Assembly (NCBI GenBank): GCA_000442015.1
Contig: KE560959.1
Span: 1 to 64,000, forward strand
Origin: Rozella allomycis CSF55
Lineage: Eukaryota
Length of the DNA: 64,000 bases
Reading direction: 5' to 3'
This document shows, one piece after another, positions 11,896 through 63,678 of the stretch. The notes under the pieces are model-generated. The model was not told the DNA's origin and ran no database searches. It saw nothing but the letters and a program-made list of their open reading frames with translations. The position numbers and the translations under genes are program-made. Every line of letters starts with the position of its first letter. The first letter of the stretch is position 1.

Positions 11896-14800
11896 ATGGA
11901 GGACATTGGCAATAAGCTCACAGGAGCCCTAGCGAGTAATGAAGTTAAACTAAAAACCATAAAAAATGATAAAATAAATAGAAAAAACAAAAAAATAACT
12001 GAAGCTGTCGACAGCATTGACAAATCGCTTAGAGACATCAAGGCGAGCAAAAAGCCGACCAAGGCATCCAATTTGATAAAATTTAATACGGAAAAACAGC
12101 CAGCTCAATTGTCATCGGTGTATTTGAAAGAAATAACAATGTCATTGGAGGACAGGTTAGCCTTATGCGGCAAACAATCGTCTATCCCTGAGATTGTTGA
12201 ATTTGTTGATATTGGAGAAAATTCTTGCCACAAGGAAACACAAGTGCCTGTTGATCAGCCTTTATTTCATGCCACACCATCAAAAGTCGTCTTTCAAAAT
12301 TTTGACCCGTTCAAAAAATATGAAGCCATGTTAAGTTTTAGGAATAGAGATAAGGTTGCCAGAAGATTAAAGGTAGAGTCTTTGGAAAGCCCATATTTTT
12401 CTGTTGTTCCACTAAAGTCTGGACCACCAAACGGAAGTAGAGTCGCCCCAGGGATGGAAATATGTTACATTCTTCAATTTAAACCTGAAGTGAAAAGAGA
12501 TTACTTTTGTCAAGTTGTATGTGTTACTGATCGTGAAAAGTTTGTTATACCTGTTGAAGCCAAAGGAAGTCGTGGGATATTGGACTTTCAAAATGAAATT
12601 AACTTTAGTGAATGTCCAGTTAAGTTTGTTAGCAATCATACATTGTATGTTAGAAACATTGGAAATGCACCTGCAAGAGTTATTATTGAAGCCGAAGAAC
12701 CTTTTTCAATCAGTCCATATCAAACAACGGTGATGCCTCAGCAAGCCGTTCAGTTTGAAGTTTCATTCTATCCCCAAGTATATAAGCTTCAAATTTAAAA
12801 CATAGTCTATTGGAAAATATGAAAAGTATATTTCCATTCTTTATGACACTGGTGAAAGTGTTATTGTCAAAGCTGTTGGTTCTGCTGAAGATGTAGCCGT
12901 CGGAAGTGAATCTGATATGTTAGTCATGAACAATACCTACATAGGTCTTGCTTCATCTCAAAATGTTCGCCTTTATAACAGGTCAAGAATTGTGGTAAAA
13001 ACTATTGCATGATTTTATAGTCTCGTTATCAATGGAAGCAGTTTCAAGATATGCAATCTGAATTGGAATACAAAAGACGGCAAATTGCAGAATTGAAGAG
13101 TGATGAAAAAGAAGGTCTTGTAAGAATGAGTGCGACAGAAAACTCTGGAGAACACTCACTTTTGGCGAAAGTTTATGAAAACAAGAAGCGTGAAATTGAG
13201 GAAGATTCATTACTTTATAAGGATCCTATTGTACAAATAGAACCAGTCCAAGGTGAAATATGGCCTAATTCATTTATTGATCTAACCGTTGTGTTCCAGC
13301 CTTCCAAGGCTTCAAAATATGTGAAGAATTTGTATCTGGATATGTCGGGTCGTCAAGATAGAATACCACTTATTGTTAAGGGAGTGGGAATAGGACCTAA
13401 AGCCAAGTTTGATTTCGATGTTCTTGACATTGAAGTTGTCTTCATTAACTCATCTCACATATATGAGCTATTACTTCAAAACAAAGGTGGAATTGACGTT
13501 CATTATTCGTTTGTAAAGTCTAATACGGCTTTTGGATCTTGTTTCCGTTTTGAACCAGTAGAAGGTGTTGTTGATTTTGCAAAATCTCTGCCTATCAAGG
13601 TATATTTTGAGCCTGACAAACTTGGTCAATTTCTTGAAGACTTTTATTTGCAAATGAGAGTAAATATTATGGATGTAGCTTATTGTAGGGATCTGATGAA
13701 ACGGTTAAACTAACGATCAGAGGTAATGTCGTTGGACCCACGTTTGAGTTTAATCACAATATCATTAATTTTGGAGTTGTATCTTTTGGATTCCCGTATG
13801 AGAAGAAGTGTCTTTTGAAGAATACGTCTGAGATCTACATGGATTATTGGTTAAGTATAAGTCCCAATTTGGACGAGGAAATTTCCTTTCATCCTGCCAA
13901 AAGCAGTTCAATACCACCAGGAGGAACACAAGAGATAACTGTGAAAATTCTTTCAAAACAACAGATAAAATATAATGCAGATTTGATCGTAAATGTTGAA
14001 GGAGTTGGTGAAGACATCTACAGAGTTCCTATTACAGCGGAGTCAATTATTCCAAATGTAAAGAATGTATTAATTGTTTAATAGGTTATTTTGAAAGATG
14101 AGTCCATTGAGCTTGGTGATTGTTATTTAGATTTCCCATATGAAAGTGAAATCATTCTTGTTAATCAGACGAATCTTCCTGCACGTTACAATTTAGTTTC
14201 AGAGGCAGAGATTGAAGATAATATGTATCATTTCAAAGCTAAATCCACTTCCGGGATTATTCAACCTGATTCTTCTATAGCACTGGGTTTCGAAGTAGTG
14301 TACAAGCAACTTGGATCTATTCAATTTTCACTGTTCATAGCAACTATGGGCCAGGAGAGCCATCCATTAGAGCTTTTAATTTCTGCGTTTGCATGTGGTC
14401 CCAAAGTGTCAGTCCCGATAACCAAAGTTGATTTTGGAAAGGTCAATGTACTTTCTCCTGTGCATTCTACTATCCAATTGATAAATGAGTCATTAATTCC
14501 AGCCAATTTTATTTGTGATTTGGGAAATCCATATTCAGTTTTTCAAGTTGAACCATCACGTGGATGTTTGTTGCCCAATGAGAAGCTAGATGTTGCAATA
14601 ACAGCCTTTTTAGATGATAATCTCAAATTCCAGGATACTCTTAAAGTTGGTATTCAGAATGGTAGTGTGACAAATGTTGTTTTGACAGCCAAAGGAAATG
14701 GTTCAACTATTGTGTTTGATGAAGATATAAAGAGAATCAGTTTTAATGACATTTTTACAAACAAAGTTGCTAGACGCGAGTTTTCTTTGGTGAATCAAGG

Positions 14801-17800
14801 AAGAAGAGCGCAGATTCTTACATGGACAATGGAGGAAGTGAGAGGGGCTATGAAGGATGTGGTTTCAAAGGGATCTAGTTTGTTCTCTGTTATTCCAAAT
14901 AGATTTCAAGTTAATCCCGGGGAGCATAAAGATGTTGTTATTGAAGCGTTTTCAACTGTTGCTATTGATAATTGTAAGCAAATGATATTGTGCAGTTCAT
15001 CCATTGACAAAGATCCATCAAAGCATTTGATTCTTGCTACAGAAGTGAGTGCCACATTTGTAAGACCTCTAGTTCATTTATCTACCGAGAGAATATACTT
15101 TTATTCAGAGCAGGGTGTCAATTCCAAACCAGGTGTATTGTCTGAGCCACTTGTATTGAAGAATGTTTCATCGCTTCCATTAGTAGTGAGTATGACAACT
15201 GCATCGCCGTTTTCTATTCTCCCGTATAAATCTGAATATATTTTACTTCCGAAAGAAGAAGAGAAGCTAAAGGTGTGTTTTGATCCTAATTTTATTGATA
15301 CCAAAGAGTCTTATGAGCAGTCTGGCAAGATTTTTGTAGCTTACAAGGATCATCCACAGAAAGACACGATTGAATTGATGGGCAAAGTGTGCTATCCGAA
15401 TATCTCCGTTTCTGTGAGTTCTTTGGATCTTGGGTGTGTTGAGCCAGCTATTGAAGCTAGGAAAAAGTTTACAATAACTAATACTGGAGTATTGCCTGTT
15501 GAATATGACTGGTCGTTTGAAATTGAAGAGGATTATGAAATCAATCCATTTGACGTGTTGCCTTTGCGAGGTAGTTTACCGCCTGATGAGTCTATTGATA
15601 TTGAGATTAGTTTTAGTACATTGAAAGTTGGAGAGTTTAAGTCTGTTGCGGTTTGCACAATCAAGGGAGGACCTGTTTATAATATACCGATTTCTGTTGA
15701 GACTTCGAATGCTAGTTATGAATTTGATACAAAGATTGTAGATTTTGGAAAAGTGTTGTATCTTGATGTAGCCGAGAGAGTCCTTTGTTTGATTAACAAT
15801 GGAAGACTGCCACTTCCATATAAATGTTATTTTCCGAGGAACAGTACACTTCCATATAGGACATTGATTAACCCAGAGAGTGGCGTGTTGATGCCATTTA
15901 AAGTTCAGAAATTCTCTGTAAGATTTTGTCCATGTTTGCCTGATGTGATTAATGGTTATTTTCTTGTGCAAATAGCGAATGATGAGCCTGTGAAAATAGG
16001 AATACAGGGGCAAGGGATGTTTTCGTTTATGAGATTTAATTTGCCCGCGAGCAATTCTAATGAGTATAGTGGGTTTATGGATGAAGCCAAGGAGATATTG
16101 AAACGGGAGGGATTGGATGAGCCAGAGGAGCAGGAGATTGAGACTGAGGCGATCCGACTGATGGCCAAGATGAAGGTTCTGGAGGTTACTAAAAACCCTG
16201 ATTTTCAAAAGAGTGTGAATATGCATTTGACTAGTTTTGGCAAATCATTGAGAAAGAAGAATATGACAGAGACGTCTATGGAGGGGCTAGGATTGAGTAA
16301 TTTGAATTTTATTGATTATGTGTGTGATTTTGGGAATGTGATAAAGGGCACTAGCAGGAAGAGGGTGTTCAAGGTGACGAATCATGGACCGTTGCCAATG
16401 TCTTTTTCTATGGACAAGAGTGTGTTGAATGGAACTAATTTTGTAGTTGAGCCTGACAAGGTGCGAGCGTTGGGGTCTATGGAGTCTACAGAGATTACGA
16501 TATCGTTTGTATCAAAGTCTACTGTTGAGGGCAAGTCTGAGGTGAAGATACCGATATCTATTGGCAATGGAACGGGTGTTAATTTGATTATAAAGGCGAA
16601 TGTAGCTGTGCCTAGTATTGAAGTTGGCACGACTGAACTGAATTTTGGGGATATAATGTATGGCCAGAGAAGAAGGAAGAGTTTTGAGTTGAGTAATAAG
16701 CATCTGGTGCCTTGTGAGTGGAGTTGTAGTTTGGTGTATTATGAGGGATCAGCCAAACAAAGGAAGAGAAAGAATGATGCTAGTTTGAGTGATTTTGAGA
16801 TATTTCCAGAATCGGGGGTGCTGCAGCCGAATGAGAATTGCGAGGTTAGTGTTCAGTTGACGCCATCGAAGCCCAAGCGATACGAGTATGAGTTGCAGTT
16901 GAAGATTGGCAATAATCCAAAGCCATTTGTTATTCCGGTTACTGGACTGGCGTACAAATCCATGATAAAGATTGAGCCGAACAATTTAAAGTTGCCGCCA
17001 GTGTTGCCGTATTCAGAGGGTGTGAGTGCAATGTTTTCTATAGAGAATGTGACTAACCATGCGTGTGAGGTTGTGTTGTTGGAGTTTGATAAGCAGTATA
17101 GAGAGGAGGATGAGATTATGAAAAAGACTGGAATGTTTAAAGAGGGTCCGTTGTATTTTCCGCCAAGAAGGCTGGGTGAGGGACTACCGCAGGAGATTAT
17201 AGATTTGCTGCCTGTTGAAAAGTCGATGGAGAATGTTAGTTGTGGGCAGAATGATGGGGTGTTGTTGGAGGAGGAGATTGGGAGAGTGCGAACCATGTCG
17301 TTTAGTGTGTCTAGACAGAATTCAGTGAGCAAGGGGCCGTCGCCAGTGAATGTGATTATCCATGGGCCGCCGTTGTCTGGAAAGACGTTGCAAGCGAAGA
17401 AGATTGCGGAAGAGTATGGGTTGAAGCATATTCATTTTGATGATATTGTTGATGAGTTATTAGATCGAGACAAGGAGAACAGGGAGAAGGAGAACAGGGA
17501 GAGGGAGAAAGAGAAGGAGAGGGATAGAGAAAAGGAGAAGGAGAAAGACTTTAACAAAGACAAAGACTCCAATAAAGACTTTAATAAAGAATCCATTAAA
17601 GATGTTAATAAAGATTCCAATGTAAAATTTGAGGTTGATAAGTTGCATACGTCATCTTCTAATGTGATTGGAGGGAATGTAGAGTTGGGAGAAAAGATAT
17701 ATCAAGTGTTGAGAGGCATAAAGAGTGAGAATGTAGTTGAAGAGACGAGTGTAGAGTTGAATGAGGGATTCCAAGTGTGTGAGTATCCATTACCGTTTGA

Positions 17801-20800
17801 TTTGATTGTTGAGATTTTGAATTTCTATTTGCAAAAGAATGATTTGAGTTGCAGTGGATTTGTGTTTGATGGGTTTGATAGCAAGTATATTCAAAGGCCG
17901 ATTCAGTTGTTTAAGGAGATAATGAAGTTGATACCTGATAAGAAGAATACGCATTTGATTGTGTTGAATGTTAACAAGGAGACGATTATAGAGAGAAGAG
18001 AGTTGAGAAAGCAGATGATTATTAAGAATGAGAAGATGTTGTTGAAGGAGTTGGAGGTGTTGAGTGAAGAAGAGTATGAGAGGATGAGTGAGAGTGAGAA
18101 GAAGGAATTTGATAGTAAAATGAAGGGGATTAAGAAGAGAATTCAAGAAGCGATGAGCAACAAGCGAGAAGAGAAGAGAGACAGAGAAAGAGAAGATAAA
18201 AGAGATAAAGAGGAAAAGAGGGATGATAAACTTGATAAAGATAAAGAAAAGTTGCTGATAAAGAAGGATAAAGAAAAGAATAAAATAAAGAATAATAAAA
18301 ACTTGAATAAATCAAAGATTGAATTGGATCAAATTGAAAATTCACAATCTATAATATTTGAAGACAAGGTTGGCATTTCATATGAATTATTCTTAAAAGT
18401 GAAGCAAGAAATATTAGAATTTATTAAAGAAGTAGAAAAGAATAAACAACAAAACCAAATTAATGTAAATGAAAACAAAAAGAAAAAGGCAAATCATCAT
18501 GAAGCAGTTTCACCCTTTGAAGAAACGTTGAAGGAAGAATTAATGATAAATATTCATGAGATTGAAGGAAATAAAAATGAGAAATTGATTTATGAAGAAA
18601 TTAAAAGTTTTCTGCCGCAAATTCATTTGAAGGTTGTTGAAAGTGAAGAGATTGTGTTGCCAGGGTTTCAGCCTGTTGATTTATTGGAGCAATCTTATGG
18701 GTTTGTTTCTAGTGGTGATGAATATAAGATTGATAAATCATTTCAAGTTCAAATTGAAGAATTACAAGAAGAGGGAGATAAGGGTGATAAAGGAGTTGAG
18801 AGGGTTGAGAAGGGAGATAAAACACTAGATAAGACACTAGATAAAACAATAGAGAAAGCAGTAGACAAGACACTAGATAAATCACAAACACAAACACTGG
18901 AAAAGACTACGTTGAATACTATTGCTAATAATTCATTTCAGAATACAAAGATAATAGTTGAAGAATCCACAAGTGAAAAGTTTAGATGGATTTTCAAACC
19001 AAAAGAGAAAAAGAATTTCACGTTAAAGTTGTTTGCTAGTAACATTGGAAGTTTTGAACAAATATTCCATTTCAAAGTGAATGCCAACAAGGAAACATTT
19101 GATTTAAAAGTTGTTGGTGTTTGTGAATATTCCTTTATAAGTTTTGACTACAAGAAGCTATTCACTAAATGGAGAAAGAATAGAGAAGATTCATCAATCA
19201 TTCAAAAAGAATACATTCTGCAATCTAATACATTTGAATTTGGTCCATTATCTATTAATAAACCACGAGAGAAATCAATTGAAAGAAATCTGGATAACAG
19301 AGCGACTATAAAGATTTATAATCCATCAAATTCTATTGTTAAAATATTGTTTTGTTTTAGATATGATTTGAAGCAGGAATTATTTCAGTTGGAGCCAAAT
19401 CAAATGGAGTTGAAGCCGAAAGAAGAATTGGATTTGAATATTTGGGCGTTTCCTAAATCACCGGGAAAGTTTGATGATTCTTTGTTGTTTCTTATTAAAG
19501 ATAATCCTGAAGTGTTTTTTATTAAATTGACATGTTTTGGTGTCAAACCTGAACTAGAAGTTGACAAAAAGGTAAGAGTTTTAGAGGGAGGTTACAAATA
19601 GGTAATCAAAGTGTTTAAAGGTTACAAATAGGTAATCATAGTGTTTGAAGGTTAACAAAGGTAATTAATTCTCTTTAAGTCTCAACTAGGTAATTAATTC
19701 ATTTCACCTCTCAAATAGGTGGTTCAGTTTGATAGGTTATTGCTGCAAAAGGTTGATGTGAGAGAATTAAAGATTAGANCCACTATAATGTCTGCTGGAT
19801 GGAAACTAGTGGGACATGAATTGCTTGGTGAAGAATTTGAAGTGTTTCCTGTTGAAGGGGCAATTGAATATGGAAAAGAAGCGACTGTGCAAATTAAATT
19901 TAAAGCAATGAAACCAATTGTTATTAAAAGAGCATTAAGATTAGAAGTTTATGACTTGGAGAGAATAGGTAAATTAAGAGTTGTAAGGTTATATAGGTAA
20001 TTAACGAGTTGTAAGATTATACTAGGTGATGCTTACACTTCTTATTCAATGTAGGGAATCCGTTGCAGTCAGATAATATTATTGTTACTGCTGAAGCTTA
20101 TGACATTTCAGTTGACATTCACTTTCCTAAAGGATGTGAAGGTGGATTAGATTTTGGTGTATTAAAAGTATTTGAAGAAATGAAACAAACAATCACACTC
20201 AAAAATAAAGGTAACAAAGAGTATTTAGTTCTTTCTAGGTAAACTTAATTCTCTTTAATTCTTTCTAGGTAAAATTAAATCTTAAACTCTATGAAAGGGA
20301 AATATGAAACAGGGTTTAGATTTGTGTTTGATAAGGATCAAAGTGAATTCATAACAATTAATCCAACATCTGGACTATTAATTCCATCAGAGAAAACATA
20401 TCCAATCCAAGTCTTGTTTAAAGGAAACAGAGAAATCTATTTAAAAGATTGTTTGAATCTAAAGTGTTTAATAACAGAGCCATCAACCAATGAAACAATC
20501 GTCACAATTCCAATCAAAATAAACGCAAAATCTGTTTTCAGCAAATACTCTATAATCCCAACAAGAGATTTAAACTTTGGATCTCTAGTGTATGGCTCCA
20601 AGGGAAACAGACAAATAATCATTGAAAATTTGGGTGAATACGATTTCAAGTTTAGTTTGATTAGAGGTGAAATAGATTCCCTAGCTGCATTCCCCTTTCC
20701 ACGAACTGGCAGCAAAACTAGAATGAATGCGGGTGGATCGTTTATGAAGAAATCGCACAGACAGTCTTCAAATTCACCGCCGCCACTAAGATCTAATTAT

Positions 20801-23800
20801 CGCAAGGAAGGAATAAAGAATGAGTCGCAAGTTGTGTCGAGTCCTTTTTCATTTTCAGTGTCTAGTGGGTCTATATCGCCTGGCAGTCGACAAATTGTAA
20901 ATATTGAGTTTCATCCAGAGAATCCGGGGAATTTTGAAGAAATTATTAATATTGACATTTCTGACAAGGGTTCCAACAGCGAAGGTAACATATGAGATTT
21001 AGAAGTGAACATAGGTAATATATGAGATTAGTATTTAAAATAGGTAATAAAGAAGCTTTAAATGTGAACACAGGTAATTTTAATTGTTCCAACTAACTGC
21101 AAGGAAGCGAGTATAAATTGATGGGAGAGTGCTGCATGCCAGGTATTAATAATACAGACTATTCATCCATCTTTGAAGAAAATTCCGTTAGAAAGAGAAT
21201 AGATTCACTATTTAACCAATCGTTTGTTTACATTGAAGATGAAAAGGTGTTTCATTTTGGATCTTTTCTTGTTGGTCAAATTGTTCAGTCTAGAATAAAG
21301 ATTAGCAATCCATTCAAAGTTTCTTGTGAAGTTTTGATTAATGTTAAACCGAGAAGTAAATCTAAAAATGATAGCAATGATTTTGCATTTGATGTTGAGC
21401 CAAAGAAGATTTTATTGCCCAGTCATGAGCACAGGTAATCAATTGGTTATAAGGTATAATATAGGTAATCAAATGGTTTAAATGTAATTAAGGTAACTGT
21501 TTAATTCTCTTCATTATCATTAGGTAACTGTTTAATTCTTTCATTATCATTAGGTAACTGTTTAACCTTCTTTAATAATAGGTTTGTTACGTTGTCTTTT
21601 CATCCATTGGCTATTCAAACTTATCAAGGAATCTTTGAAGCATTGGTAGAGAATATTCCAGAATCAAAATCAAAATCATTATTGTTTGAATTGAGAGGAG
21701 AAGGTACTCTACCAAGAATAACAATAGAAAAACCAACTTTAAAATCCAAGAATGGAAATCNCAACGTTAAAATCCAAGAATGGAAATCCATTACTAAAAT
21801 TTAAGAAAACATTAATTGGAAATTTACAGCAAATGTCAATAATAATTAAAAATGATGGAATAATCCCATGCAAAATAAAATTTGAATTTATTTCTTCTGA
21901 ATTCACAGACTTTGAAATGGATCAACTAGTTCCACTGATCCAACTATCTCCAATGGAAATAAAAACATTCAATATCAAATTTAAACCAACAATTGTTAGA
22001 AAATATGAAAGTGAAATTAAACTAAAAGTTTATGATAATCATTTTGAAGATTCATACATCCAAATCCAAGCAGAAGGATACATGGATGACATTTCAGTTG
22101 AAGATTCATCCGATGACACTTGCAATGAAAATGAAATTGTGTTGAGAGATTGTTTGGTTGATAAGAAACGCATAGAGTCGTTTGTTCTTCGTAACAATAC
22201 TTCAAATTATATTAAATGCACGCTTGGTCAGTGTAATGAATTTGTTTTGAGTCCATCTGTTTTTCATATTAGGCCGAGAGATATTAAAAAGGTTTTTGTG
22301 CAATTTCATCCAAAGCAGCCTTGTAGAGTTTCTGCTGTTGTTAATTGTAGTTCTAGTAGGATAAAGTATAATGTTAATTTGCCTCCTGATTTTGAATGGG
22401 ACAACAGCAGAGATAGAGATAGAGATTTTACAAGAGAGATTAAAGACGTAAAAGAAGTGAGGTCTAAACAAGGCTTGAGTGAACCTTCTTATAGTGTTAT
22501 TGAAAATTCAAATTTTACTCTTCCACTTTCTATTCAAGCTATTTCTGATTATGGTGATTTTGAACTTGAAACAAATTCAATTCAATTTAAAACTACTTTA
22601 ATGTTTCAATCTAGAGTATTTTCATTTCCTATAAGAAATACTGGCAAAATTTCTATTCCATTTGAATTCTATTTCACTCTTGATGATTCCACAATGACTA
22701 ATTCTTCTACAATTAATTCAGCTGTGAATCCATTTACTGTTAATCCATCAAATGGAACTATTTTAGCTGGTGAATCTTTATTAATTACAATCAAATTCCA
22801 ACCAATAGAAGTTGATGATTATTCTCTCTTTCTTCATTTAAAATTATTAAATCTTTTACCTGGCAAATCTTATCCAATAATTCCAATAAGAGGAAAAAGT
22901 TTGAGACCACTTTGCCACTTTGAATTGGAAACTAAAGATTATTTATTCGACAGCATTCAAAATTTAAGTAATTCTTTGGATCCAAATACCCGGGTTATTG
23001 AAATTGAAACTATAGGAATTAAAAAAGTAAATTTACAGATTAGATCTATAATTTAGATTATTAAAAATTTTTATATTTTGAATCCAACTAGCATCACTTA
23101 TGACTTTGAATGGGTTAAAGAAGGAAACGAACAAGGCAAATTGAAATGTTTAACAAGGCAGGGAACAATTGTTGGTGGCAAAAAGAGTGAAATAATATTT
23201 GAATATTCACCCGACAATATCGATGTATTAGAAACATTTTGGAAATTTAAAATTCCATCTCAAAATATTCAAATTCCATTCATGATTTTATGTAGATCTT
23301 TGGAACCTTCAATCTACTTTGATAAAACAAGTGTTAATTTCAAATCTATTCTAGTTGATTGTCCAGTTAAGGAATCATTGAATCTTGTCAACCAAGAAAA
23401 CATTCCATTTTATTTTTCATTCAATGATATTCTAAATGAAAATTCATCTGTTATTCAAATCAATCCGAATTCTGGGTTCATTGCACCTAAATCTGAACAA
23501 ATTATCACTGTTATGTTTCAACCGAGATCTGAAAAGATTTATAATTACAATTTAATCTGTAACGTTAGAAAGAAACCAAATCCACTCGTTATCAATATTA
23601 AAGGGGAGGGGTACTTGATCCATGAAAAAGTTTACTGTCAGAATGTTGATAATTCGCTTTATTTACTTTCAAACTCTGATTTTAATTTAATTGATTTTGG
23701 TAGAGTGTTTTTAAATGCTAAAAGTTCTAAAAGAATCACAATCAAAAATGATGGCAGATTTCCTTTTGATTTCTCTTGGAAAATTAAAGGAAACAAATCT

Positions 23801-26431
23801 AACTGTATTTCTATCAACCCGGAATTCGGTAAAGTAGGGAAAGATGAGATTGTTAATTGTGATATTGATTTCTCACCAACTGTTCATGTGAATCTCAAAA
23901 ATGTAACAGCTGTTTGTCAAATAAGCAATGGAAGGCAATACACTCTCTCATTTGAAGGTATTGGCGCTAAACCTAATCTATTAATATCTGAAGATTTCCA
24001 TGATTTCGGTCCTTGTTTCATATTCAGACCTGGCATGAAACCACTAGAACATCGATTCAAAGTTACAAACAAGGATGAAAAGGAAATCTCACTGGATGTT
24101 TCAATTTCAAATTCATCTGCTTTTGAAATAAATGCATTTGGTCCACCTTGTATAGCTCCCAACGCATCCACATTTATTACTGTATTGTTCTTTCCAAGAG
24201 AAGCAACGAAATACCAAGAATATTTAACTGTTGATATTAATGGACTGTCTAAAACTAAATTAACAGTCTCTGGTGAAGGAGTTGACATGAATTTGGATTT
24301 GGCGCATTCCGATCATAAAAGCATTGGATTCGGTGCCGTTAGAGTTGGCCACGTTGTCACTAAAACAATAAAACTAGTCAACAAGAGTATCATCCCTGTT
24401 AAATTCAATCTCGGTACTACATCTGTTATTGAAAAATTGTTGAAGAATTTTGTCACCTTTTCGCAAACACAGGATATTACTATTAGACCCAAAGGGTATT
24501 TCAATCTAGAGTTCAAGTTTATTCCAACTGTGCGGGTTCAGCCATTCTTTGAAGAAATCCATTTCGAGTGTCCAGGGTATTCAAAGCCGTTGTTTGCTGT
24601 GCATGGTGCGTGTCATGGCATTGAAGTGAAGATTGAAAACCAGAATATATCGTTTGGCGCTGTTGTATTAAACAGTTCCAATGCACGCAAAGTTCAGTTG
24701 AGAAATGTTGGCGATATTGGTGTAAAGTTTAAATGGGATGTTTCAAGGTTCTATCCACACTTTAGCATCACTCCATCGGAAGGATACATTTCATCTGGAA
24801 TGGAAGTGCCTCTAGAATTCACATTTCATCCCAAAGAATTGGACCACGATATTAGATTAGATTCCATTCCTTGTTTTATTGAAGGTGCTAATCCGCTGAC
24901 TATTAATCTATCTGGTGTTTGTATCCCGCCAACTATTCAAAGTGAAGTTTTGAAATTTAGTACAGCGGTTAGAGAATCTGATGTTAAACAGATTCCATTA
25001 ACTAACAAATATCCATTCACTTGGATGGTTAAACCGGTTATTGATAACGAGTTTTGGTCTTGTTTGGAATCATTGGAAATAGAAAGTGGCCAAACAAAGC
25101 AGCTGGAAATTGTGTACAAGCCTCTGCAAATGACAAACGATGAACACAAACATGAAGGTTCTATTTTCATTCCCCTGCCTGATGGCTCTGGAATGCTGTT
25201 TAGGTTGCTGGGTACTGCTGATAAGCCAACTGCCGTAGAATCACACACTTTGGAAATACCTTGCAAGACTCATCACGTTCAATCTCTTAAAGTTCAAAAC
25301 TGGCTGAAATCCTCACAAAGATTCAAAGTTGTCATTGAACAAGCGAAAACAGATCTATCAGTTCTACTCAAAGGCCATTCTTACATTGATATTCCGCCAT
25401 CAGCAGCCTACGATTACAAATTGAGCTATTTCGCTTACAAGGAGGGGCTATTCAACGTTAAAGTTACTTTTAGAAATGAAGATACAGGAGAATACTTGTT
25501 TCACACACTGCAATTCAAATCAACGCCGCCAGCTGTTTCTGCTGTATATGAAATGTCAACTATAGCCAGGCAACCTGTTCTGCAAGAGATTTCTATTCTC
25601 AATCCACTGCCAATAACAGTGTCGTTCAATGTTACTTGCACACATCCAGATGTAAACTGCCCCTCTCAATTCAATATCGCACCAAGGTAATCCAAGCATA
25701 TTAAGATTAATAGATCGGAAGGTATTTGCACGGTTGAATTTCTGCCACTTCAAGCAAAAGAATCGTCCACGCGCGTCACTTTATCTTCTAATGAACTGGG
25801 TGTCTACAACTACGACCTAAAGCTGATCGCCACTCCAGCTGGCCCTGAAAGAAGTATCCAATTCAAAGTATCACTAGGTGCCTCCCAAACTCAAAGCTTC
25901 AGATTCACAAGCTATGCTAAATCGAAAATTGAATATTTATGCAAAATTGATAGTCCAGACTTAACTTGTGAAAAATCTGTCATTGCTCCGCCAGGTAATC
26001 AAATGAGTTTAAGTAAATTAGCTCTTGCTTCGGGCGGCGTTGAAGTTGTTATCGATGTTGTCTACGAACCTTCAAAATTAGGTGATACCAAGTCCTTTTT
26101 ATCTGTCTCCTCGCCCCAAGGTGGTGATTATATCTGTCCACTGATTGGACACTGTATCGCTCCTAAACCACAAGGTCCGTTTACTATAAAGGCAGGCTCT
26201 TTTGCGTCCATTCCTTTTAAAAATGTTTCTGCGCAGACGGCAAATTTCATCATGACAATTGACAATGTAAATTTCACTGTAAAGAACCAGGAATCTATCG
26301 GGTCAAAAAAGATGGTGCACATCAATGTCAATTATAAAGTTGTCAATTCGAAAGCGCCAAAGACGGCTAAAATGGTTGTTAGTCAGGTGGGGTCGAATGT
26401 TCAATGGATTTACTATCTTAAAGGGATTTAA
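11896..26431 (+). CDS. HYDIN: HYDIN, axonemal central-pair protein (multi-exon, roughly 4,500 aa)
   Basis: Many ASH-like domains; SRVAPGMEICYILQFKP; adenylate-kinase-like GPPLSGKT; AEAYDISVDIHFPKG; terminal WIYYLKG. Confidence 0.95.
19572..19718 (+). other. Compound intron 1 of HYDIN: 5 abutting GT..AG units (30,30,29,29,29 nt)
   Basis: Units start at 19572, 19602, 19632, 19661, 19690; removal joins ...EVDKK|VVQFDRLLL. Confidence 0.9.
19969..20054 (+). other. Compound intron 2 of HYDIN: 3 units (28,29,29 nt)
   Basis: Units start at 19969, 19997, 20026; removal gives ERIGNPLQSDNIIVTAEAYD. Confidence 0.88.
20211..20297 (+). other. Compound intron 3 of HYDIN: 3 units (28,30,29 nt)
   Basis: Units start at 20211, 20239, 20269; removal gives LKNKGKYETGF. 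Confidence 0.9.
20985..21103 (+). other. Compound intron 4 of HYDIN: 4 units (30,29,30,30 nt)
   Basis: Units start at 20985, 21015, 21044, 21074; removal gives SEGSEYKLMGECCMPG. Confidence 0.9.
21435..21581 (+). other. Compound intron 5 of HYDIN: 5 units (30,28,31,30,28 nt)
   Basis: Units start at 21435, 21465, 21493, 21524, 21554; removal gives PSHEHRFVTLSFHP. Confidence 0.9.
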
Positions 26432-28717: not shown

Positions 28718-30525
28718 CTACTCTAGTAACCGCCAGGAGAAATTTATCATCTTCCAAATAGCCTTTCTTGGAAGCGTGCCAAAGAGCTTAATTTCTTCTG
28801 GATCTGTTTTGGAGTCCGCTAACAAAACCTTAACAACTTCGGCATGACCGTTCTCAGAGGCACATCTAATAGCATAATTACCCCAGGCACTTGGATTAAC
28901 TCTAGAATCCTTCAGCAAAGCTTTCACAATTTCAACATGACCATACTCAGCAGCACGAACAATAGATTCATTGTACCTGGCTCCAGGATCCACTCTAGCA
29001 TCAGTTAACAGAACTTTGATGACTTCCAAATGACCGTTCCTGGATGCATGTCTAAGAGCATAACTCCTTCGTACACTCGGGTCTATTTTAGGATGTGTTA
29101 GCAAAACTTTAACAACTTCATAATGACCATTGGCAGAGGCACGCCTAATAGCATAGTTTCTTCTTACACCTGGATCTACTCTAGGGTCTCCAAGCAGAGT
29201 TTTAACAATTTCGACATGGCCAAACTCAGAAGAATGCATAATAGATTCATTGTACCAGGCCCCAGGATCCTCTCTAGCGTCTGCTAACAAAGTTTTAATG
29301 ACTTCCAAGTGACCTTCCTTGGAAGCATACCTACTAGCACAATTGACACCGAAATTTGTATCTACTCTAGGGTCCGCTAGCAAAAGCTTAAGAACTTCTG
29401 CATGACCGGCTTCAGAGGCATTACCAATAGCGTAAGTTGGATTCACTCTCGAATCTTGTAGCAAAATTTTAACAATTTCCACATGACCGTTTTCAGCGGC
29501 GCGTATAATGGAATAATCGTCTCGAGCGTCAGGCTCTACTCTAGGATCTGCCAGTAAAAGTTTAACGACTTCTGCATGGTTGTTCTCGCAAGCACGTCGA
29601 AAAGCATAATTGCATTCTTGCGTTGGATCTACTCTCGGGTCTGTTAGCAAAATCTTGACGACTCCGGCATATCCGTCCTCTGAAGCAACTTGAATGGCAA
29701 AATTTTCACCTGCGCTTGGATCTACTCTGGGATCTTCAAGCAAAATTTTAATAACTTCCGTGTGATTGTTCTGGCAAGCATCCTGAATAGCAATATTTTC
29801 CCAAACACTGGGATCTACTCTAGAATCATCCAACAACAATTTAACAACATGGGCATGGCCATTCATAGAAGAATATCGAATAGCATAATTGTCCTCTAAA
29901 GTGGGGTCGACTCTAGAATCGGCCAACAACATTCTAACAACTTCCACGTGGCCATTTTTAGAAGCATACTGAATAGCAGAATTTTCTCTTGCACTTGGAT
30001 CTACTGTAGCATGTTTCAACAAAATTTGAACAATTTCTCCATGGCCGTTTTCTGAAGCCAGCTTGATAGCTTCATTATCACATGCGCCAGGATCAACAAT
30101 TGGCAAAATAGGTTTCGTTTCATACTTTTGATTACACCTTCTAATCTGCCTATCATCGATCATGAGTGATACGTATTCTATGATTCCATACTGGCACACA
30201 AACTGAAAAGCATAGTTTGCACTTTGCGGAGAATTGGATTTTCCTACTAGAATGTTCAGAAAATTGACCAGCCTTTCACATATTTCGCTATTATGTAGGA
30301 TTTCAGTGCAAGTATCTATGCTGAACAATATGCCACATCTATGGTCGATTATTTTTTGAATAATATATGGGCATTTCCACGAGCAACAAGTTTCTGGAGA
30401 TTGATGAAGGACGGAATCCAAGCAAAGTGAACGAAGCCAGCAGATGCTCTTGAGATTTTTTTCACGTCATTTAGACTTAAATGCGACAAAATTATGTGCC
30501 AAACCTCAAACGGGAAGTGTTCCAT
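28718..30525 (-). CDS. N-terminal F-box + ~14 ankyrin repeats (apparent frameshift near 30350)
   Basis: MEHFPFEVWHIILSHLSLNDV is F-box-like (ATG 30525); 34-aa repeats DPRVDPSA..NYAIR.AS.NGH.EVVK.LL in ORF 28718-30421. Confidence 0.8.
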
Positions 30526-41508: not shown

Positions 41509-42966
41509 CTATATAAAAAATTGCAAAAGAGCCCCCTGTAGCAAAAGAAATAAAGTAATCCAATTGGCGAGTTGCATTGAATAAGCTTTGTTAAATGGAG
41601 GGTATACACAAATGCCATCCAATGCTCCCATCGAAAATATCAATATTATTCCAAAAAATTGAGCCGAAGTATTCAACAAAAAGGAGCTGGTTGCTTCGTC
41701 TATATCGTTGAAAGATTTTGCAGCTAATTCAAATCCACTTGGCATCATTGCGGAAAGAGATCCCCCAAGAAAGATGCTAAAAATTGTATCCAAATATATT
41801 TTACATAGCTAGGACCACGTATTCGAAAGAAAGAAATTCTAACGCTATGTTGTAGAAAGTGTATGAAAGTATGGCCAAGATATATAGCCAGCGACAAGCA
41901 GATGCATACTTTTTAGTTCTATCCAAATAATTTCCCGCAATTAATATAAATATCATGCCAACTCCAATGAACCCTAATCCGAGAAAGCCAACGTCGAACT
42001 ATATATGTTAGAATTTAAGTCTTCATACCTCTCTGCTTGGATATATTGGCACAATCATTTGCGCCATCAATGTAGTTACGCTATATTGAACACCAATATT
42101 TATCCCGTAAGCGACAAACAAGGCCGCAAATCTAGCATTTTTCATCGCCTTAAAAATCAGTGATCCTACTCCATAATTCCTTTTAATCGATTCGACAGCA
42201 TAAAATGGAGAATCAGATTCAAAAAACATAACAATCAAGGCGAAGATTACACAGCAAAATATAAATTGAATAAGAAAATAGCGACTTATATCTGCTGCTT
42301 GGTTATTTGAAGAAATTGCCAATGGTGTAATGAAGAATCTATATTCCTGATATAATAATTTTGTTACGCTAATAGCACTCCCATAGTGTTACAATTAACC
42401 GCGATACTTGTGGCCAAACTTTGAAGCTTCTCCGGAAACCAGCAACTAGCCAATTTTGAAGGTAAACCTTTCATTGAAATGAATATATATTACCGAGAAT
42501 AAATCCCTGTGCTATCGCGGAAACGCATTGCCCGATTAGACAAATATTGTACTCGTTTGACCAGTACCACCTGATAAATGTCCCCAGAGCATTTAAAAAC
42601 GCGCCTATACAAATTCCTAGAAATTATTTTCAGTGAAAAACATTACCTAATTACGACCGCAATAATTTTCTTACCTGCTTTGATTCCATTAGAGTTGGAA
42701 GCATCCACTGGATAAACCTTTGCTCTTTGAAACCAGGATCTAATTTTCCTATCATTTTCAACAGTCCACAAGCACGGGAACATCATAAACGGATATATGA
42801 TCATGTACACGAGCGAAAAGAGATTTATGTACAGTATATCCGACTTGCCAAAGTGTGTTTGGAATACATAGGTGAGAGGTGCAAAGGTGTTCCACTGAAA
42901 AGAATTTGAAGCAGACAAGAGACCGAACAGAGCCAGCATCTGCCATTTTTTAAAGGAATTTTTCAT
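41509..42966 (-). CDS. MFS transporter, FLVCR/SLC49 family
   Basis: SASNSFQWNTFAP, IGQCVSAIAQGF, PSKLASCWFP, GFELAA, SAQFFGI. Confidence 0.8.
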
Positions 42967-44053: not shown

Positions 44054-47000
44054 TTATTCCTTGTCTAGAGAAATCATACAGCTTTTAGCAACAGAGTCAA
44101 AGAGTCTTTCAATGTCTGGAGCAACATGGGTGAAGCTGTGACTCCAGAATGAATAGATGGGATTTTTGACTAGTTCAATAAAAGTGACGAGTAGACCCCA
44201 TGGATGTGGTCTATTAACAATTAATCTTTCCAACAGAACTCTAGAATAAGAAGGAATAAATATTAATACCGGGTGATGTGTTCTTTGATGGATTCAGATT
44301 TAGCAGATTGAAACAAATTCAAGATGATGGAGCTGAAATGGTTTGTGTGAATATTTGGAAATCTCATTTGATTAGCGATTGAGTCCAAGACAGAGTGAAG
44401 ATCTAATTTAAGAGAGAGTTTATAAAATTACTTGCAGAATCTAATTCAGAGCATAAAGTATTGAAAAAGACCATTGAAGAAGAAGAAGATAAATTTTGCG
44501 TGTGATTCAAATTGATACCAATGATACCAGCAGACAATACCAGTGCATGGATGGAAGCAAAAGAATTATCATTTTTAAAATAATCAGTAATGAAATCTTT
44601 TAATTCTTTTTCTTTAAATTCTTTTTCTTTTAATTCTTTTTCTTTAAATTTAGATTCTAAAATATTTTGTAATTTTCCCAAATGATTTGAAATTTCTTTT
44701 GGAAAATTCTGAAATTCATTTTTCTGATTAAAAAAGATTTTTGGCAAAAGTTTTGATTCATCTAGAGAATTCATTTTAAGATCTTTAGTGAATGGATCTG
44801 GCAACTTCATGTTTCTTGGGAAAGCAGATAAAACAAGATTTCTCAATTGAATGCAAGTGGAGGGAATTAAATTACAAATATCAAAATAATATTCACAAAG
44901 GAAATCTGGAAAATCATGTAAAATTACAAGTAATATTCTCAAAGTGCCTTTTAAAAATAGATTAATGAATTACCCCTGTAAATAACTCTGATAGATTCTT
45001 TAAGATCAGGTTTTTTAAGAAATGGATAAAGAAACTCAAGAGCATCCAACAATAAAGAATGAAATAGAGGCCTTTGATTAAATGAAGATTAAAGAGGTAC
45101 CAAGTAGATCTACTTTCTAATAAAACAAATTTCGGGTGAGTTATCATTTCATACCAAGCGAATACAAATTCAGGCACAACTGTTGGTCTTATTAAATGGA
45201 GCAATGTAGCAAAGCACTCCAACACTCTAAACCTAAACGCTTCACTAGTAGGAAGTGCAGTAGCGTTAGAAGGAGCAGTAGTTGAAGTATTAGCTGCATC
45301 AGTAGTTTCCATGTTCTTTTCGCCTTTATTTTCTCCTTTACTCTCACTTCCTTTATTTTCACGTACTCTACCCTCACTAATTCCATCACTAGTCCCTTCA
45401 CTTCCTTTGCATTCATTAATCATATTATTCATTAAACTAAGAAACAACCTACAAAAAGGCTTCTGCACCAAAAAATTTCTTCTATCCAAAGCTTGCACAA
45501 GCACCAATGAAATAATAGAAAGAACCTTGGACAACAATTGAATTCTCTTGTTATTTCCATTCTCATTATTTTCAAATCCATACTTTAACATTAAAACAAT
45601 TAATCTACTAAACGCTTCCACCGCTTGATAAGAAACAGACATTGGGTTGGATCTATTCTTTAAATAATATTCAATACAAAGTTCAGTGCAAACTCTAAAG
45701 AATAGAAAAGTAACTTGGTCGTCTTTAATGATGCCTTGTTGCTGCAATTGAACAACAAAAGGTGCTAGATTATCTTCAAGGGTGGAGGGATACTGAAACA
45801 GTCTCAACCAATCATTAAACACTACAGCAATTCTGTTTCTTATATCGTTTCCTTCTTCTTCTCTTCCAGTATTCAATTTTCTTGTAATGTCATGCAAAAG
45901 TCTAGTTAAACTTTCTGGGCCTTTAGTTCTCTGTGCAATTCTATTCAAAGTTTCAATTGAAAACACAAAATCAAATGGGGAAGCTATAGCTGGTTCATCT
46001 AATACACATCTTCTAATTAATTTAACACAAAATTCAATAGCTGATATTCTACCAGTTTCCATCACTTTGGCCATTTGCATGTCATATTCAACAACATTCA
46101 ATAGTCCACTCAATAGTAATGCTATTGTAACAGGAACATTATACTTTCTTTCATCATCTGCATAAATAATCCAACTAGTAACTTCTTTGGCTACTTTGCT
46201 ACTAATCTCACACAATTTATCCAATAAAATAACAGATATTTCTCTCAACAAGGGTGAATCTGATTTATACAATATTTGAACAACCTTTAATAACAACAAT
46301 TGAATCATTTTACTTTTTGACTAAAAACAAGGGCTACTTCATCTCTATTGTAAGCATGCAACACAATAACAAGAATTTGTCTTAATAAAGTTCTCAATTC
46401 ATGTTGTGTTGGAAATGTTGACAAGGATTGATTTGGACTAATTAAAACAATCTTTTCCACTTTTGAAATAATCATTATAAATCTTTCTAAACATTGTTGT
46501 GTTGATAAAACTGTCTTTTCATTTGAATTGTTTTCATTCTTTTGTAAATTCTTTAATAAATTTTGTATTCTTTCATATTCCCCTGGCTCAATTGGATTTA
46601 TATTGATTAATGGAATTGAATTCAATGAATTTCTTTTAAACAAATCATAAATATTCAATTGATTGCTATTCAACCCACCAACTTTACATTTCAATGCTTC
46701 TGGTATCAAACTATAAAAAGATTGCATATTAACAAAACTAGGATCTGTAAATGGCTGATTAGATCTTTCCTTGTGTTTTCTTCTCAACATCAACGCTGCT
46801 GACACATTCTCCTTCATTTCAACCAACGCCTTTTCTACACACGCCTTTTCAATAAAACTTGTCAATATTTGTAAATTATCTTCTATTATTCCAATTATAC
46901 TAGACTCTGTCATTCCAATTCCAATCTCAGCTATTTGAATAAAGTTTCTAACATTCGATATTATCGCATTCTTCAATGGATCTTTGGCTGTCACATTCGC

Positions 47001-50000
47001 TAGTTGTCCAGACACACTCATTATCATTTGGTTACACGCTTTCATCATTCTCTCTTCACTTCCTTCCATACAGAAATCCTTCAAAATAATCTCTTTACAC
47101 GTCAACACAGCTATTGAACTAGATCTCTCTACTACTGGCCCAATCACTTCTCTCAATGCAAATTCCATAGCCAACAAGATTATATTCTGCAACACTGGAT
47201 ATACATTCCCTCCAAAATTAATAAATGGTTGCAACAATGTTCCATCAATCGTTGTATTAGTTGANNNNNNNNNNNNNNNNNNNNNNNNNNNNNNNNNNNN
47301 NNNNNNNNNNNNNNNNNNNNNNNNNNNNNNNNNNNNNNNNNNNNNNNNNNNNNNNNNNNNNNNNNNNNNNNNNNNNNNNNNNNNNNNNNNNNNNNNNNNN
47401 NNNNNNNNNNNNNNNNNNNNNNNNNNNNNNNNNNNNNNNNNNNNNNNNNNNNNNNNNNNNNNNNTTGATTACATCTCCCTTATTTTCACTAGCTCCACTT
47501 GCACTATTAATAGCATTAGCTACAGTCAATTGCTTCAACACAGTAGATGGCTCAATACCTAACAATCTCATCACCAAATCTTACTTGCCAAATCAACTTG
47601 AATTTTATTACACAAAACCTCAACTTCAAACTTTAAATTCAACTTCAAATCAGCAAAATGATACATTTCAACCAACAATCTCAACAATCTCATGATCCAC
47701 GGATTATTTGGCTTAAACACCATACTACCAACACTCTGCTCAAGAAATTTACACACAAACGGTATCGCTACTATCAATCTATTACTCTCATATCCTTCAT
47801 TAATCATCCATTGTTTCATTACCTTCTATCAATAACTCTCTAAACGACATGTGCTTGTGCAAAACAACTTTATTCTCTCCCAACGTTAAACTGCCCAACC
47901 ATCCTGCTAAATTCTTCAAAATTTGTCTCTTATCAATAGATGACACTGTCTCCTCTGAATTCAACAACAAATAAATATTAGAAAATGTTTCCAAAAATAT
48001 AAATCTCTCCAGTTCTTTATTATTCAATCTCTTTATCAAATTATTATACACTCCATGATAATTCAACTCTTTACAAACTCTCTTTTCTATCAAATAATTG
48101 GCAAACCATCCTATAACATCTTCCTTCATCTCTTTATTCGCTTCATCTGCCTTTTCCACTAAGTTATTAACAGAAATATTATTCAAAATAAACAATAATC
48201 TATCCTGGACACTCTCTTCTGGTATCTTTTCATTCCTCGGTCCAAAATCTTTTTCTATTTGTTTCATCTTTACACACGAAAATATCACACCAGGGTCTTT
48301 CACTTGTCTGGGCAACACTGGCATTGGATTAGACACCAACTGCTGAATATACGTCACCAAGTCTGGAAACACTTGCTGCAAATGTGGAATAGACATCAAA
48401 TGCGAACAATACTGCGGCCACTCACCCAATCTGCTCTGGAACTGAATCAACGCTTGGAATCCAAACTTAAACATCTTTGATCCAACTGGCTTTCTCAATG
48501 ACTCCAACACATATCTCAATGCTACTCCAAGTGGTATATACGATATCAACTGATACTGAATCAACGATCCAAACAACACTGCTGTCAACGCCAACTCTTT
48601 CTCTGGATACTTTGGAAAGAAACGATATTCATCAAACAGATTATGAATCATACACGCAAATATCTCTTGTTCTCTTTGCAATCTAGACACTTTTAATTGC
48701 GCCAGTATATCAATCATTTGTTTAACAGATATTTCCTTTGAATAAACCTTTTCAAAATACATATTAGCTTCATTTTCTCTATCAGCTGGGAATTGAGCTT
48801 CTGTTTGATAAATTGGCTCTGCATTCCCACTCTCACTCTCCTGGCCCATCATTCCCAACACATCCTGATACACATTCTTTGCTTCTGCATTCATCAGATT
48901 CATATTAGATTTAAACACTCCCAAAAATATATTGACTACTTCAACTGACAATGGTATAAAGGGTGGAACTTGTTGCCCTTCTGCTCTTCTCAACTGCAAC
49001 GCCAATTTCACATACACAAAATCCAAACATGCCTTCATAAACACTTCCTTTAATGTTTTCAGCGTATCAATCAGCCACTTCTCCAAATTCAAATGCTCTC
49101 TTCTACTAGCTAATGCAGCCATATCAATTGCAAATGAAAATGGTCTAGCCTCTAAAATAACAGTCAAGCCACGAATCTCCTGCGCCACATCCAGCAATCG
49201 GGATAAACAAGTTGGATCTCTTTTGTGTAATTCAGACATACAATGAATCACCAAATTACTATTCAAATGCCACAATCTACTTAAAACTATTGATGAATTC
49301 TGTTGTCCAATAAGAAATCCACATGACAATTTAACTATCAACTCATGTGGCTTGGAATTCCATGCTGGATTCAAATGAGACAATCCAAGACAAATCAATT
49401 CAGGACATTGTTTAACTCCAATTTCTAAAATTCCAATGGCTTCCTTTTCCAAATTTGAATCAAAATAGCCAATCAATACTTCCATCAAATCTACACAATT
49501 CCATGTTTGATGATACATCACATTCAAAAGATTCTTAGAGTTTCCAGATATTAACGTAACCTCTTCAAATGTTATCACTTTTCTCAATGCATAGTTTGAA
49601 AAATTCATTAAATCGGACGCTTGCACTGTATAATACAGAAACGATAATTGCCCTTTTCCATTACTCCATCTAGTCATAAAAAATTTAGACGGAAAACTAT
49701 TCATATCCTAAACATATTTTAAACAGCTATAATCATACAGGCATCGCAATTCCCAAAATTCCCATCAAGCTTCTAAAGCACGTCATATCAGATATAAAAA
49801 ATTCTTCATTATCCAAACATTCAACAATCCTTTTCCAATTTAATTCATTATTCTTTTAAATCAAAATCATTATCTTACATGTTGATTCAAAACTCTACAA
49901 AACACTTCTCCATTCCAAACAGCAAATGGATCATTCTCTTCACTCGCCTTTTTCCTTGCTATCTGAATCAACGCTCCAGCCACATCTTCCTCTTTCAGCC

Positions 50001-50538
50001 TTCTTCCGAAATGGTCAACAACAGATCTCATCATATCAGCATTCGAACAAATCTTGGAACCAACCTCACCCAGGATGGCTCCAAAACTCAAATTCACATT
50101 CAAACTCTCCAGCAGCGTTGTCAAATCCTCGCCACTCATATACATCCTCGGTCTACACTAAATCAACCCTGGTTTGTTTACATGTGCTTTATCTTTAGTG
50201 CATACTCGTCCATACTCAACAAATTCAAATAATCATACACCCTCTCCACCTTTGAACTCTCCAACGCACTAAAATCTATCAACTCAAAGTTCTCCTCGAT
50301 AAGCTCACGACCTACTTTTTCTTTATATTATTTAACTACCTTTAATAGACTCGGGATCAAATAAACACAAATCAACACCCAACAACAGTAGCTGAAGGTA
50401 CGTCAGCTCTGATAAATTAATCTTTTCTTGCTTGTAATAATTTGCTAGTATTCCTAAATGCGTAGGCTCTTTGACATACAGAGCGAACGCTTCGAATACC
50501 TCCGTGGGTCGCTGTAAACGCTCCTCGGGTTGTGACAT
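44054..50538 (-). CDS. NOT1: CCR4-NOT scaffold NOT1 (200-N gap at 47265-47464)
   Basis: [34 protein letters not shown]-like [36 protein letters not shown]. Confidence 0.96.
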
Positions 50539-63497: not shown

Positions 63498-63678
63498 ATT
63501 TGAGAAGCTAGCTATCATTGAGGGGGTTATTGATCTTTCAACTTGCAATAAAAAGATTAGTCTAATTTTTATTGTTATCAGGTCCTTTTAATTGCTCACT
63601 GTAGCTCATAGTAGAAAATTAACATTTAACCGTTTGAGTCTTTGACGGTTGGTCATNCCCACTTTTGGGCTCGCGTAA

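Follow-up and report, generated by a model that had tools for sequence, protein, structure and literature searches.

Compound introns of the hydin gene

The window analysed here, a stretch of 64,000 nucleotides (nt) that covers positions 1 to 64,000 of contig KE560959.1 of Rozella allomycis CSF55, carries on its plus strand, at 11896..26431, a gene for hydin, a flagellar central-pair protein. The gene was delimited by its homologues, by Pfam HYDIN Ig-like domains and by our own gene model, and its long central exon matched 48 homologues named hydrocephalus-inducing protein, with chytrid fungi as the best matches. It has 12 interruptions, seven of them simple introns and five compound, i.e., chains of three to five complete GT-AG units of 28-31 nt each, with zero exon between one unit and the next. 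The explanation of these chains, or arrays, that we find best, and fairly probable, is that they are minisatellite-like elements whose repeat unit is a complete intron, produced jointly by microhomology seeding at the exon borders and by splicing unit by unit.

Array 1 (19572..19718, phase 0) consists of five units of 30, 30, 29, 29 and 29 nt; array 2 (19969..20054, phase 1) of three units of 28, 29 and 29 nt, the first two with an identity of 0.70; array 3 (20211..20297, phase 1) of three units of 28, 30 and 29 nt; array 4 (20985..21103, phase 1) of four units of 30, 29, 30 and 30 nt; and array 5 (21435..21581, phase 2) of five units of 30, 28, 31, 30 and 28 nt, starting at 21435, 21465, 21493, 21524 and 21554. 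For each interruption we determined the terminal repeat, defined as the direct repeat between the exon end plus the first-unit start, on one side, and the last-unit end plus the next-exon start, on the other. It measures 5 nt in array 3 and 4 nt in the remaining four. The simple introns of the same gene and strand (12778-12805, 12995-13020, 13660-13688, 14058-14084, 23027-23056, 25687-25713 and 25995-26021), which served as internal controls, have terminal repeats of 0-2 nt, and two of the last three present AG upstream and no G downstream. The split within the gene is clean, since all five interruptions with repeats of 4-5 nt are compound and all seven with 0-2 nt are simple.

When the five arrays were removed whole, the alignment with two chytrid hydins covered 724 residues at 48-49% identity, and no gap beside the five array junctions exceeded two residues. 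This colinearity fixes the exon ends independently, and with the ends so placed every array follows an exon ending in AG and precedes one starting with G, just as had been noticed in an earlier reading made from the sequence only. Nineteen of the 20 hydin units would cause a frameshift or add a stop codon if retained singly. The sole unit that is in frame and free of stops is unit 3 of array 4 (21044-21073, 30 nt); if retained, it would lengthen the protein by ten residues, and an intron unit might turn into a microexon in this way.

The sequence-only reading had also pointed to related neighbours within the arrays. Array 5 is made of two related blocks, units 1-2 (identity 0.61) and units 3-5 (0.54-0.90), with identities of 0.19-0.30 between blocks. 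Units 3 and 4 (21493..21553), described as 1 nt apart, indeed differ by a single 1-nt indel and represent the most recent duplication of the window. The 5' motif given for units 1 and 2 of array 4 is common to both. Units 1 and 2 of array 1 share their last 13 nt, as claimed, but the likeness is limited to the 3' half (10/10 matches, compared with 1/10 in the 5' half), and units 2 and 3 match in the 5' half (9/10). Unit 2 is chimeric, its 5' half being that of unit 3 and its 3' half that of unit 1, and these half-matches mark a copy made out of register rather than an exact copy of a whole intron.

Flanks and relatedness of the units in a genome sample

The analysis was extended to 880 kb of the 11.86-Mb genome, in 108 sequences including the window, annotated with our own gene model. 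The stretches were picked around matches to a two-junction pattern, plus 150 kb picked regardless of arrays. Throughout, a slash marks the splice border or the junction between units. In the genome, 258 instances of two consecutive AG/GTAA junctions spaced 20-26 nt were counted, which is far above chance, the reversed pattern giving 11. The gene model was probabilistic, allowed unit-to-unit transitions and unit lengths of 23-40 nt, had no term for exon flanks, and recovered all five homology-checked hydin arrays. After discarding 16 duplicates and 191 cases in which a flanking exon measured less than 45 nt or there was an N within 30 nt, 1352 of the 1559 predicted interruptions were retained: 1203 simple introns, nearly all of 26-32 nt, and 149 compound ones, 77 with two units and 72 with three to twelve. 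About 180 compound introns were found across 88 gene models, and the array-bearing genes include those of Prp8, Top2, the largest subunit of RNA polymerase and Hsp90. No high-confidence array was present among the 203 introns of the unselected 150 kb; arrays are rare in the genome.

As a control, 37 arrays in 12 loci were compared with dynein homologues; one dynein exon of this genome is 100% identical to a protein of Rozella allomycis. Twenty-seven arrays were spanned by a homologue and all 27 were colinear after whole-array removal, while ten had no hit; of the simple introns with a dynein-homologue hit, 41/44 were colinear. Together with the five hydin arrays, this agrees with the earlier proposal that the arrays leave the protein unaltered. 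The same restoration of colinearity speaks against an assembly artefact, as does the fact that the units are diverged and not identical; many arrays adjoin N joins or contig ends, which is what could be said for such an origin, but we consider it extremely improbable.

The AG/G context proposed from the hydin arrays was clearly enriched in the sample. It flanked 54/72 arrays with at least three units and 104/149 of all arrays, compared with 122/1203 simple introns (Fisher p 8e-35); among the latter the count was 17/203 in the unselected stretch and 58/458 in array-bearing loci. When compound and simple interruptions were classified by terminal repeats of 0 to 7 or more nt, the ratios of compound to simple were 3:437, 5:293, 18:271, 37:109, 34:54, 19:24, 21:8 and 12:7, which are case-control odds and not genome frequencies. 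The odds increased about 2.3-fold per nt (coefficient 0.83, locus bootstrap 0.74-0.96) once local skew, exon length and the position along the gene had been adjusted for. For arrays of at least three units, the ratios according to how the bases were split between the two sides were 1:62, 1:79 and 3:130 for repeats of 2 nt, and 2:12, 5:27, 11:52 and 3:36 for repeats of 3 nt. The odds for this class follow the total repeat length more than which side supplies the bases. Among twelve flank models compared by the Akaike information criterion (AIC), a match to TAG/GTA was the best (350); the values were 369-375 for the own terminal repeat, 378 for MAG/GTA, 387 for a two-indicator model in which each side acts separately and 405 for a plain AG/G indicator. 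AG/G is thus a threshold within a graded dependence on terminal repeat length, best fitted by the TAG/GTA match.

Such flanks might also be explained by selection at the level of splicing, if arrays arose anywhere but persisted only at flanks matching the consensus, where stepwise removal would find the strong exon contacts it needs. MAG/G(T) is the usual exonic consensus, according to the passages we cite of PMC3443670; the fixed MAG/GTA score nearly equals the own terminal repeat (AIC 378 vs 375), and non-contiguous matches are mildly enriched too. However, the base enriched at exon position -3 is T, the base of the intron end, and not A or C: it was present in 33/104 arrays compared with 20/185 simple introns having AG upstream in phase 1 or 2, where no stop codon bars it. 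This excess of T is expected from homology to the intron end but not from selection for the consensus of exonic splice borders. In addition, 583/1203 simple introns have neither flank, so the spliceosome of this organism does not need AG upstream or G downstream. We therefore regard selection on splicing as a very unlikely origin of the flank bias.

The units themselves were compared after trimming the splice motifs, with a threshold of 0.6 identity. Related pairs amounted to 76/294 among adjacent units, 29/145 at lag 2, 5/73 at lag 3 and 4/66 at lag 4 or more; among control pairs they were 5/1446 for units of another array of the same gene, 13/4000 for units of other loci, 11/4000 for random simple introns and 0/294 for composition-matched shuffles, and at 0.75 no cross-locus pair was found (0/4000). 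The decay with distance and the controls close to zero indicate that the units were made locally and not drawn from a dispersed family. At least one related pair was present in 43/72 arrays of three or more units. The similarity that had been noticed between neighbours in hydin recurs in the sample and lies far above every control. Neither of the outcomes that the sequence-only reading had named as refuting its idea, a lack of flank enrichment or a likeness within arrays no higher than between random introns, was observed. The evidence for local tandem duplication of the units is good, and we hold this conclusion with high confidence.

The insertion of unrelated introns at the AG/GT sites of existing exon-intron borders, by an introner-like element, by reverse splicing or as filler DNA during repair, would fit the 72/77 two-unit arrays that are not twins, and AGGT is described as a preferred site of intron gain in the cited passages of PMC3443670. 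The counts just given are at odds with it: cross-locus units are no family (13/4000 vs 11/4000 for random simple introns) and likeness falls with distance inside the arrays. Furthermore, no hairpin signal was detected in 41 arrays (mean z -0.03), and allele-like copies repeat different units locally. Insertion, already disfavoured beyond the second unit, is highly improbable as an overall explanation. Two introner features were searched for separately and rejected: an introner or introner-like family, in the 880 kb sampled, and a terminal inverted repeat or stable hairpin, for which the folding of the 41 whole arrays with at least four units gave mean z values of -0.03 and -0.04 against two kinds of shuffles. 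Pairing of G-rich 5' units with C-rich 3' units in a hairpin gave no signal in the same set.

Another interesting aspect is the register of the copies. Adjacent pairs (n=294) were alike in both halves in 23 cases, only in the 5' half in 31 and only in the 3' half in 28. The signature of a copy starting in mid-unit was found in 3/145 triples, against 0 for its mirror image, and hydin arrays 1 and 3 account for two of these cases. Copies may also extend across the exon border. The starts of downstream exons resembled the starts of last units more than expected from permutation (p 0.002), a few arrays matching over 7, 8 and 13 nt, the ends of upstream exons matched first-unit ends weakly (p 0.049), and in a homology-confirmed dynein case (locus L066 at 3151) 8 nt are common to the downstream exon start and the last-unit start, next to an upstream flank that is not AG. 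Because out-of-register and boundary-straddling copies occur, exact copying of a whole intron, as originally proposed, is one of several routes: the flank and similarity evidence agrees with duplication at the AG/G repeat, and the exactness of the copy does not hold in all arrays.

These border matches would be expected if the arrays derived from duplications of about 29 nt with arbitrary ends that straddle the boundary and are viable only when the exon supplies AG (upstream) or GT (downstream); the flank bias would then be a one-sided filter of viability, and microhomology would not be needed. The enrichment of TAG upstream is compatible with this as well. One good side should then be enough, yet for arrays of at least three units the compound to simple ratio was 6:166 with AG upstream and no G downstream, compared with 54:122 when G was present. 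The two-indicator model was the poorer one (AIC 387 vs 350-375), and no general likeness was found between unit interiors and exon ends (p 0.12 and 0.58). As a general origin this is unlikely; straddling duplication probably contributes a minority of events.

Copies of the same array could also be compared within the assembly, in which allele-like versions lie next to each other, separated by a single N join, or are placed on small contigs. The Top2 array has three units in one version and at least five in the other, that of the His-tRNA synthetase gene has four and at least five, the longer version carrying one unit in triplicate, and in the glycogen debranching gene each version repeats a different unit. 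The sequence-only reading had suggested comparing unit number between haplotypes, and these apparently allelic copies do differ. In 10 allele-like pairs the shared exon differed at 11/1169 bases and the terminal units at 57/270 (about 21%), a contrast inflated because assemblers split haplotypes where they are most different; one of the 10 pairs may be a gene duplicate. A second version of the five hydin arrays was not found in the genome stretches examined.

Probable splicing of single units and proposed mechanism

If the arrays are spliced unit by unit, each unit should keep the properties of an intron. All 145 internal units measured 27-32 nt, although the model permitted 23-40 nt. Compared with simple introns, internal junctions carried GTAA in 127/145 vs 877/1203 cases and TAG in 111/145 vs 679/1203, a difference that is partly due to ascertainment, and strong junctions were kept even between units only 0.2-0.3 alike. 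From these features, splicing unit by unit appears very likely, and the sequence alone allows any order of excision. We also observed that last units end in AAG in 79/149 arrays, compared with TAG ends in 125/149 first units and 111/145 internal units, and that penultimate units retain TAG even where they are C-rich.

On the other hand, the arrays might have originated by duplication and be removed today as one long intron, the internal junctions being relics. When introns of 41-200 nt were allowed, 37 long calls were obtained against 1951 short ones; 24 of the long calls fell mostly in sequence that the model without such introns had left intergenic, and the other 13 may include some true long simple introns. 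A public annotation removes one four-unit array whole (P0049) and is silent on the steps. Against removal in one piece, the splice sites at internal junctions equal or exceed those of simple introns in strength, and they persist between units of low similarity while the divergence of units between allele-like copies is about 21%. Moreover, inspection by eye of the 37 long-intron calls revealed no clean fused unit of double length. We consider removal as a single long intron quite unlikely. The single ribonucleic acid (RNA) run placed one 37-nt piece on the 3-kb Hsp90 locus and left its four-unit array uncovered.

As to the origin of the arrays, we consider flank microhomology as the main seed to be likely, and the process could be described in three steps. 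First, where an exon end plus intron start resembles the intron end plus exon start over at least 3 nt (AG/G, ideally TAG/GTA), slipped-strand replication or microhomology-mediated repair would copy one intron length in tandem, leaving the protein untouched. Second, once there are two units, the repeated AG/GTAA junctions and the shared sequence would permit unit-length duplication or deletion in any register; at the level of DNA this step is seen in twins, in chimeric units and in alleles of differing unit number. Third, introns in this organism being almost all of 26-32 nt, only copies with GT, AG and that length would survive, and each unit would be excised singly. Any order of excision would work because each excision rebuilds GT after the upstream end. 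The process would be concentrated in mutation-prone zones deep in long genes.

It should be noted that several results weigh against this explanation. AG/G is not necessary, as 45/149 arrays lack AG upstream or G downstream, nor is it sufficient, since 0/17 AG/G introns were compound in the unselected 150 kb compared with 29/47 beside a large array. The claim that AG/G microhomology is the cause agrees with the strong enrichment and has to be restated as a dependence graded by repeat length. Beyond the consensus, the upstream exon end matched the last-unit end no better than permuted pairs (p 0.31), and the same was true of the downstream exon start and the first-unit start (p 0.85). The search patterns favoured AG upstream among two-unit arrays, as the sample took in only part of the 19 hits after a non-A base plus G and of the 73 hits after non-G; the class with at least three units is nearly unbiased because it is detectable through its internal junctions. 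Just 5/77 two-unit arrays were twins at 0.6, with a mean identity of 0.37 compared with 0.32 in mismatched pairs. For this reason the first duplication is seldom seen directly and we infer it from the flanks; a fast divergence of the units may account for the scarcity of twins. Finally, the clean out-of-register signature is confined to the three triples mentioned above, and copying does not predict the polarity from G to C described in the next section.

Genomic setting and comparison with known systems

Arrays cluster in long, G-skewed genes, and the large ones sit deep in them; many of these genes are flagellar or core nuclear. The excess of G over C was higher in the first unit than in the last in 58/72 arrays and lower in 12/72, and in five-unit arrays the counts shift from 64 G and 12 C in the first unit to 8 G and 61 C in the last. 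The skew extends beyond the arrays. At fourfold-degenerate sites of the flanking exons the skew of T over A ranged from +0.28 to +0.34 at distances of 30-150 nt before the arrays and from -0.13 to -0.27 at distances of 60-250 nt after them, and the sense-strand skew of G over C was 0.52-0.64 at 0.8-3 kb upstream and 0.09-0.21 downstream. In hydin, the intron-free stretch before the arrays (15000..19571, plus strand) is strongly G-skewed at third codon positions, and this skew collapses past array 5. Strand-symmetric skews of this kind can arise where DNA is single-stranded, as it is at resected breaks, replication origins or R-loops. A nucleosome-scale periodicity of the skew was discarded, as no periodic autocorrelation peak appeared up to 600 nt.

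With somewhat less than even confidence, we propose that Rozella harbours self-renewing intron minisatellites: a spliceosome fixed on 26-32 nt would turn slippage between the microhomologous ends of introns into a birth and death of singly removed units, within mutation zones (for example, sites of recurrent breaks or R-loops far inside long genes) marked by a switch from G/T to A/C skew centred on the arrays. If this is true, introns would lengthen only by whole units, and intron duplication, intron loss and recursive splicing would be observable between the haplotypes of one isolate.

Minisatellites gain and lose unit lengths, show a likeness that falls with distance and have copy-number alleles. 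The arrays resemble them in their decay of likeness and in the copy-number variation between N-joined copies that appear to be alleles; unlike minisatellites, their unit is bound to splice signals and to 27-32 nt while the interiors diverge quickly. Known ratchet points subdivide very long introns. Recursive splicing at such points, which are zero-length exons in long animal introns, is the subject of PMC2773006, PMC4482092 and bioRxiv 10.1101/226894. The arrays share with them the AG/GT junctions with a zero-length exon (294 internal junctions in the 149 arrays), and stepwise removal would be the route in both; they differ in that whole arrays total about 55-340 nt, with 12 units in the largest, and in that the segments are full introns of minimum size and copies of each other.

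The closest mechanism among those described is intron gain by tandem genomic duplication of a segment containing AGGT (Yenerall and Zhou, 2012; PMC3443670). As far as the passages cited here go, in that process, as in the arrays, a duplicated AG/GT provides acceptor and donor and the coding sequence remains unchanged. In that mechanism an exonic segment is duplicated, so that the new intron should resemble the flanking exon, and it occupies a new position. The arrays instead copy an intron, or two half units, at an old position, one per array and with units abutting, and their interiors do not generally resemble exon ends, apart from a few single cases. What results is a series of introns separated by zero-length exons, and the process recurs and is also reversed. 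Accordingly, the intron multiplication put forward in the sequence-only reading applies to splice units, which multiply at existing positions, and not to intron positions, none of which arises anew.

In fungi, stwintrons or complex intervening sequences contain several U2 units at one position, and a small donor duplication has been proposed as a step in their origin (PMC8469720, PMC7138796). According to the cited parts of those papers, one unit of a stwintron lies inside another, where it interrupts or abuts an element (donor, branch or acceptor) that the outer unit needs for splicing. The arrays are, in contrast, serial, with two to 12 units, each with intact GT and AG; where stwintrons have an obligatory order of excision, the sequence of the arrays would permit any, and they show neither a dispersed family nor an inverted repeat.

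Published accounts that mention the species refer, in the passages available, to short introns of about 30 nt and to intron density, and those passages contain no arrays. Our literature searches found no published description of such arrays; supplements of genome papers and subscription journals could hold a mention. For other organisms, a metagenome scan was followed by inspection, by script and by eye, of 80 of at least 121 stretches, which were satellites, simple repeats or open coding frames, and no gene with diverged intron-like units was found among them. The origin of introns has been debated for a long time, and the mechanism of most gains can no longer be traced, according to the portion cited of PMC3443670. 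The Rozella arrays offer a quantitative rule (the increase in odds per base of terminal repeat), visible intermediates and an apparent polymorphism within one assembly, so far in one species. If the units are spliced singly, they would also represent recursive splicing reduced to its minimum size, and this in essential genes.

Some further arrays and features deserve a mention. The biggest array examined, with 12 units, lies in a CFAP43-like gene (locus L108 at 6704), and its G and C counts change from 9 and 0 to 0 and 4 along the array. Spliceosome genes carry arrays as well, in loci L106 and L089 (Prp8 domains and Sec63/SNRNP200 domains). Two paralogous genes for SNF2-family helicases (L060 at 1630 and L128 at 6209) each present a two-unit array after an identical exon end, with different units, which corresponds either to independent origins in one context or to an old shared position.

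Within the window, an N at 21761 (within 21729-21790) joins two slightly different copies of about 28 nt and resembles an allele bubble; the apparent frameshift of hydin near this point is therefore probably an artefact of the assembly. A further N of the hydin region is at 19779. A sixth chain, of two units with AG/G flanks, lies on the minus strand at 42617-42674, where our gene model put neither gene nor intron. Also on the minus strand, 44054-50538 holds a long gene split by an N gap at 47265, possibly Not1, with a strong sense-strand G skew and no array modelled. Finally, coding repeats with a period of 93 nt (31 residues), which we take to be ankyrin-like, are present at 28718-30163 and 62811-63511.

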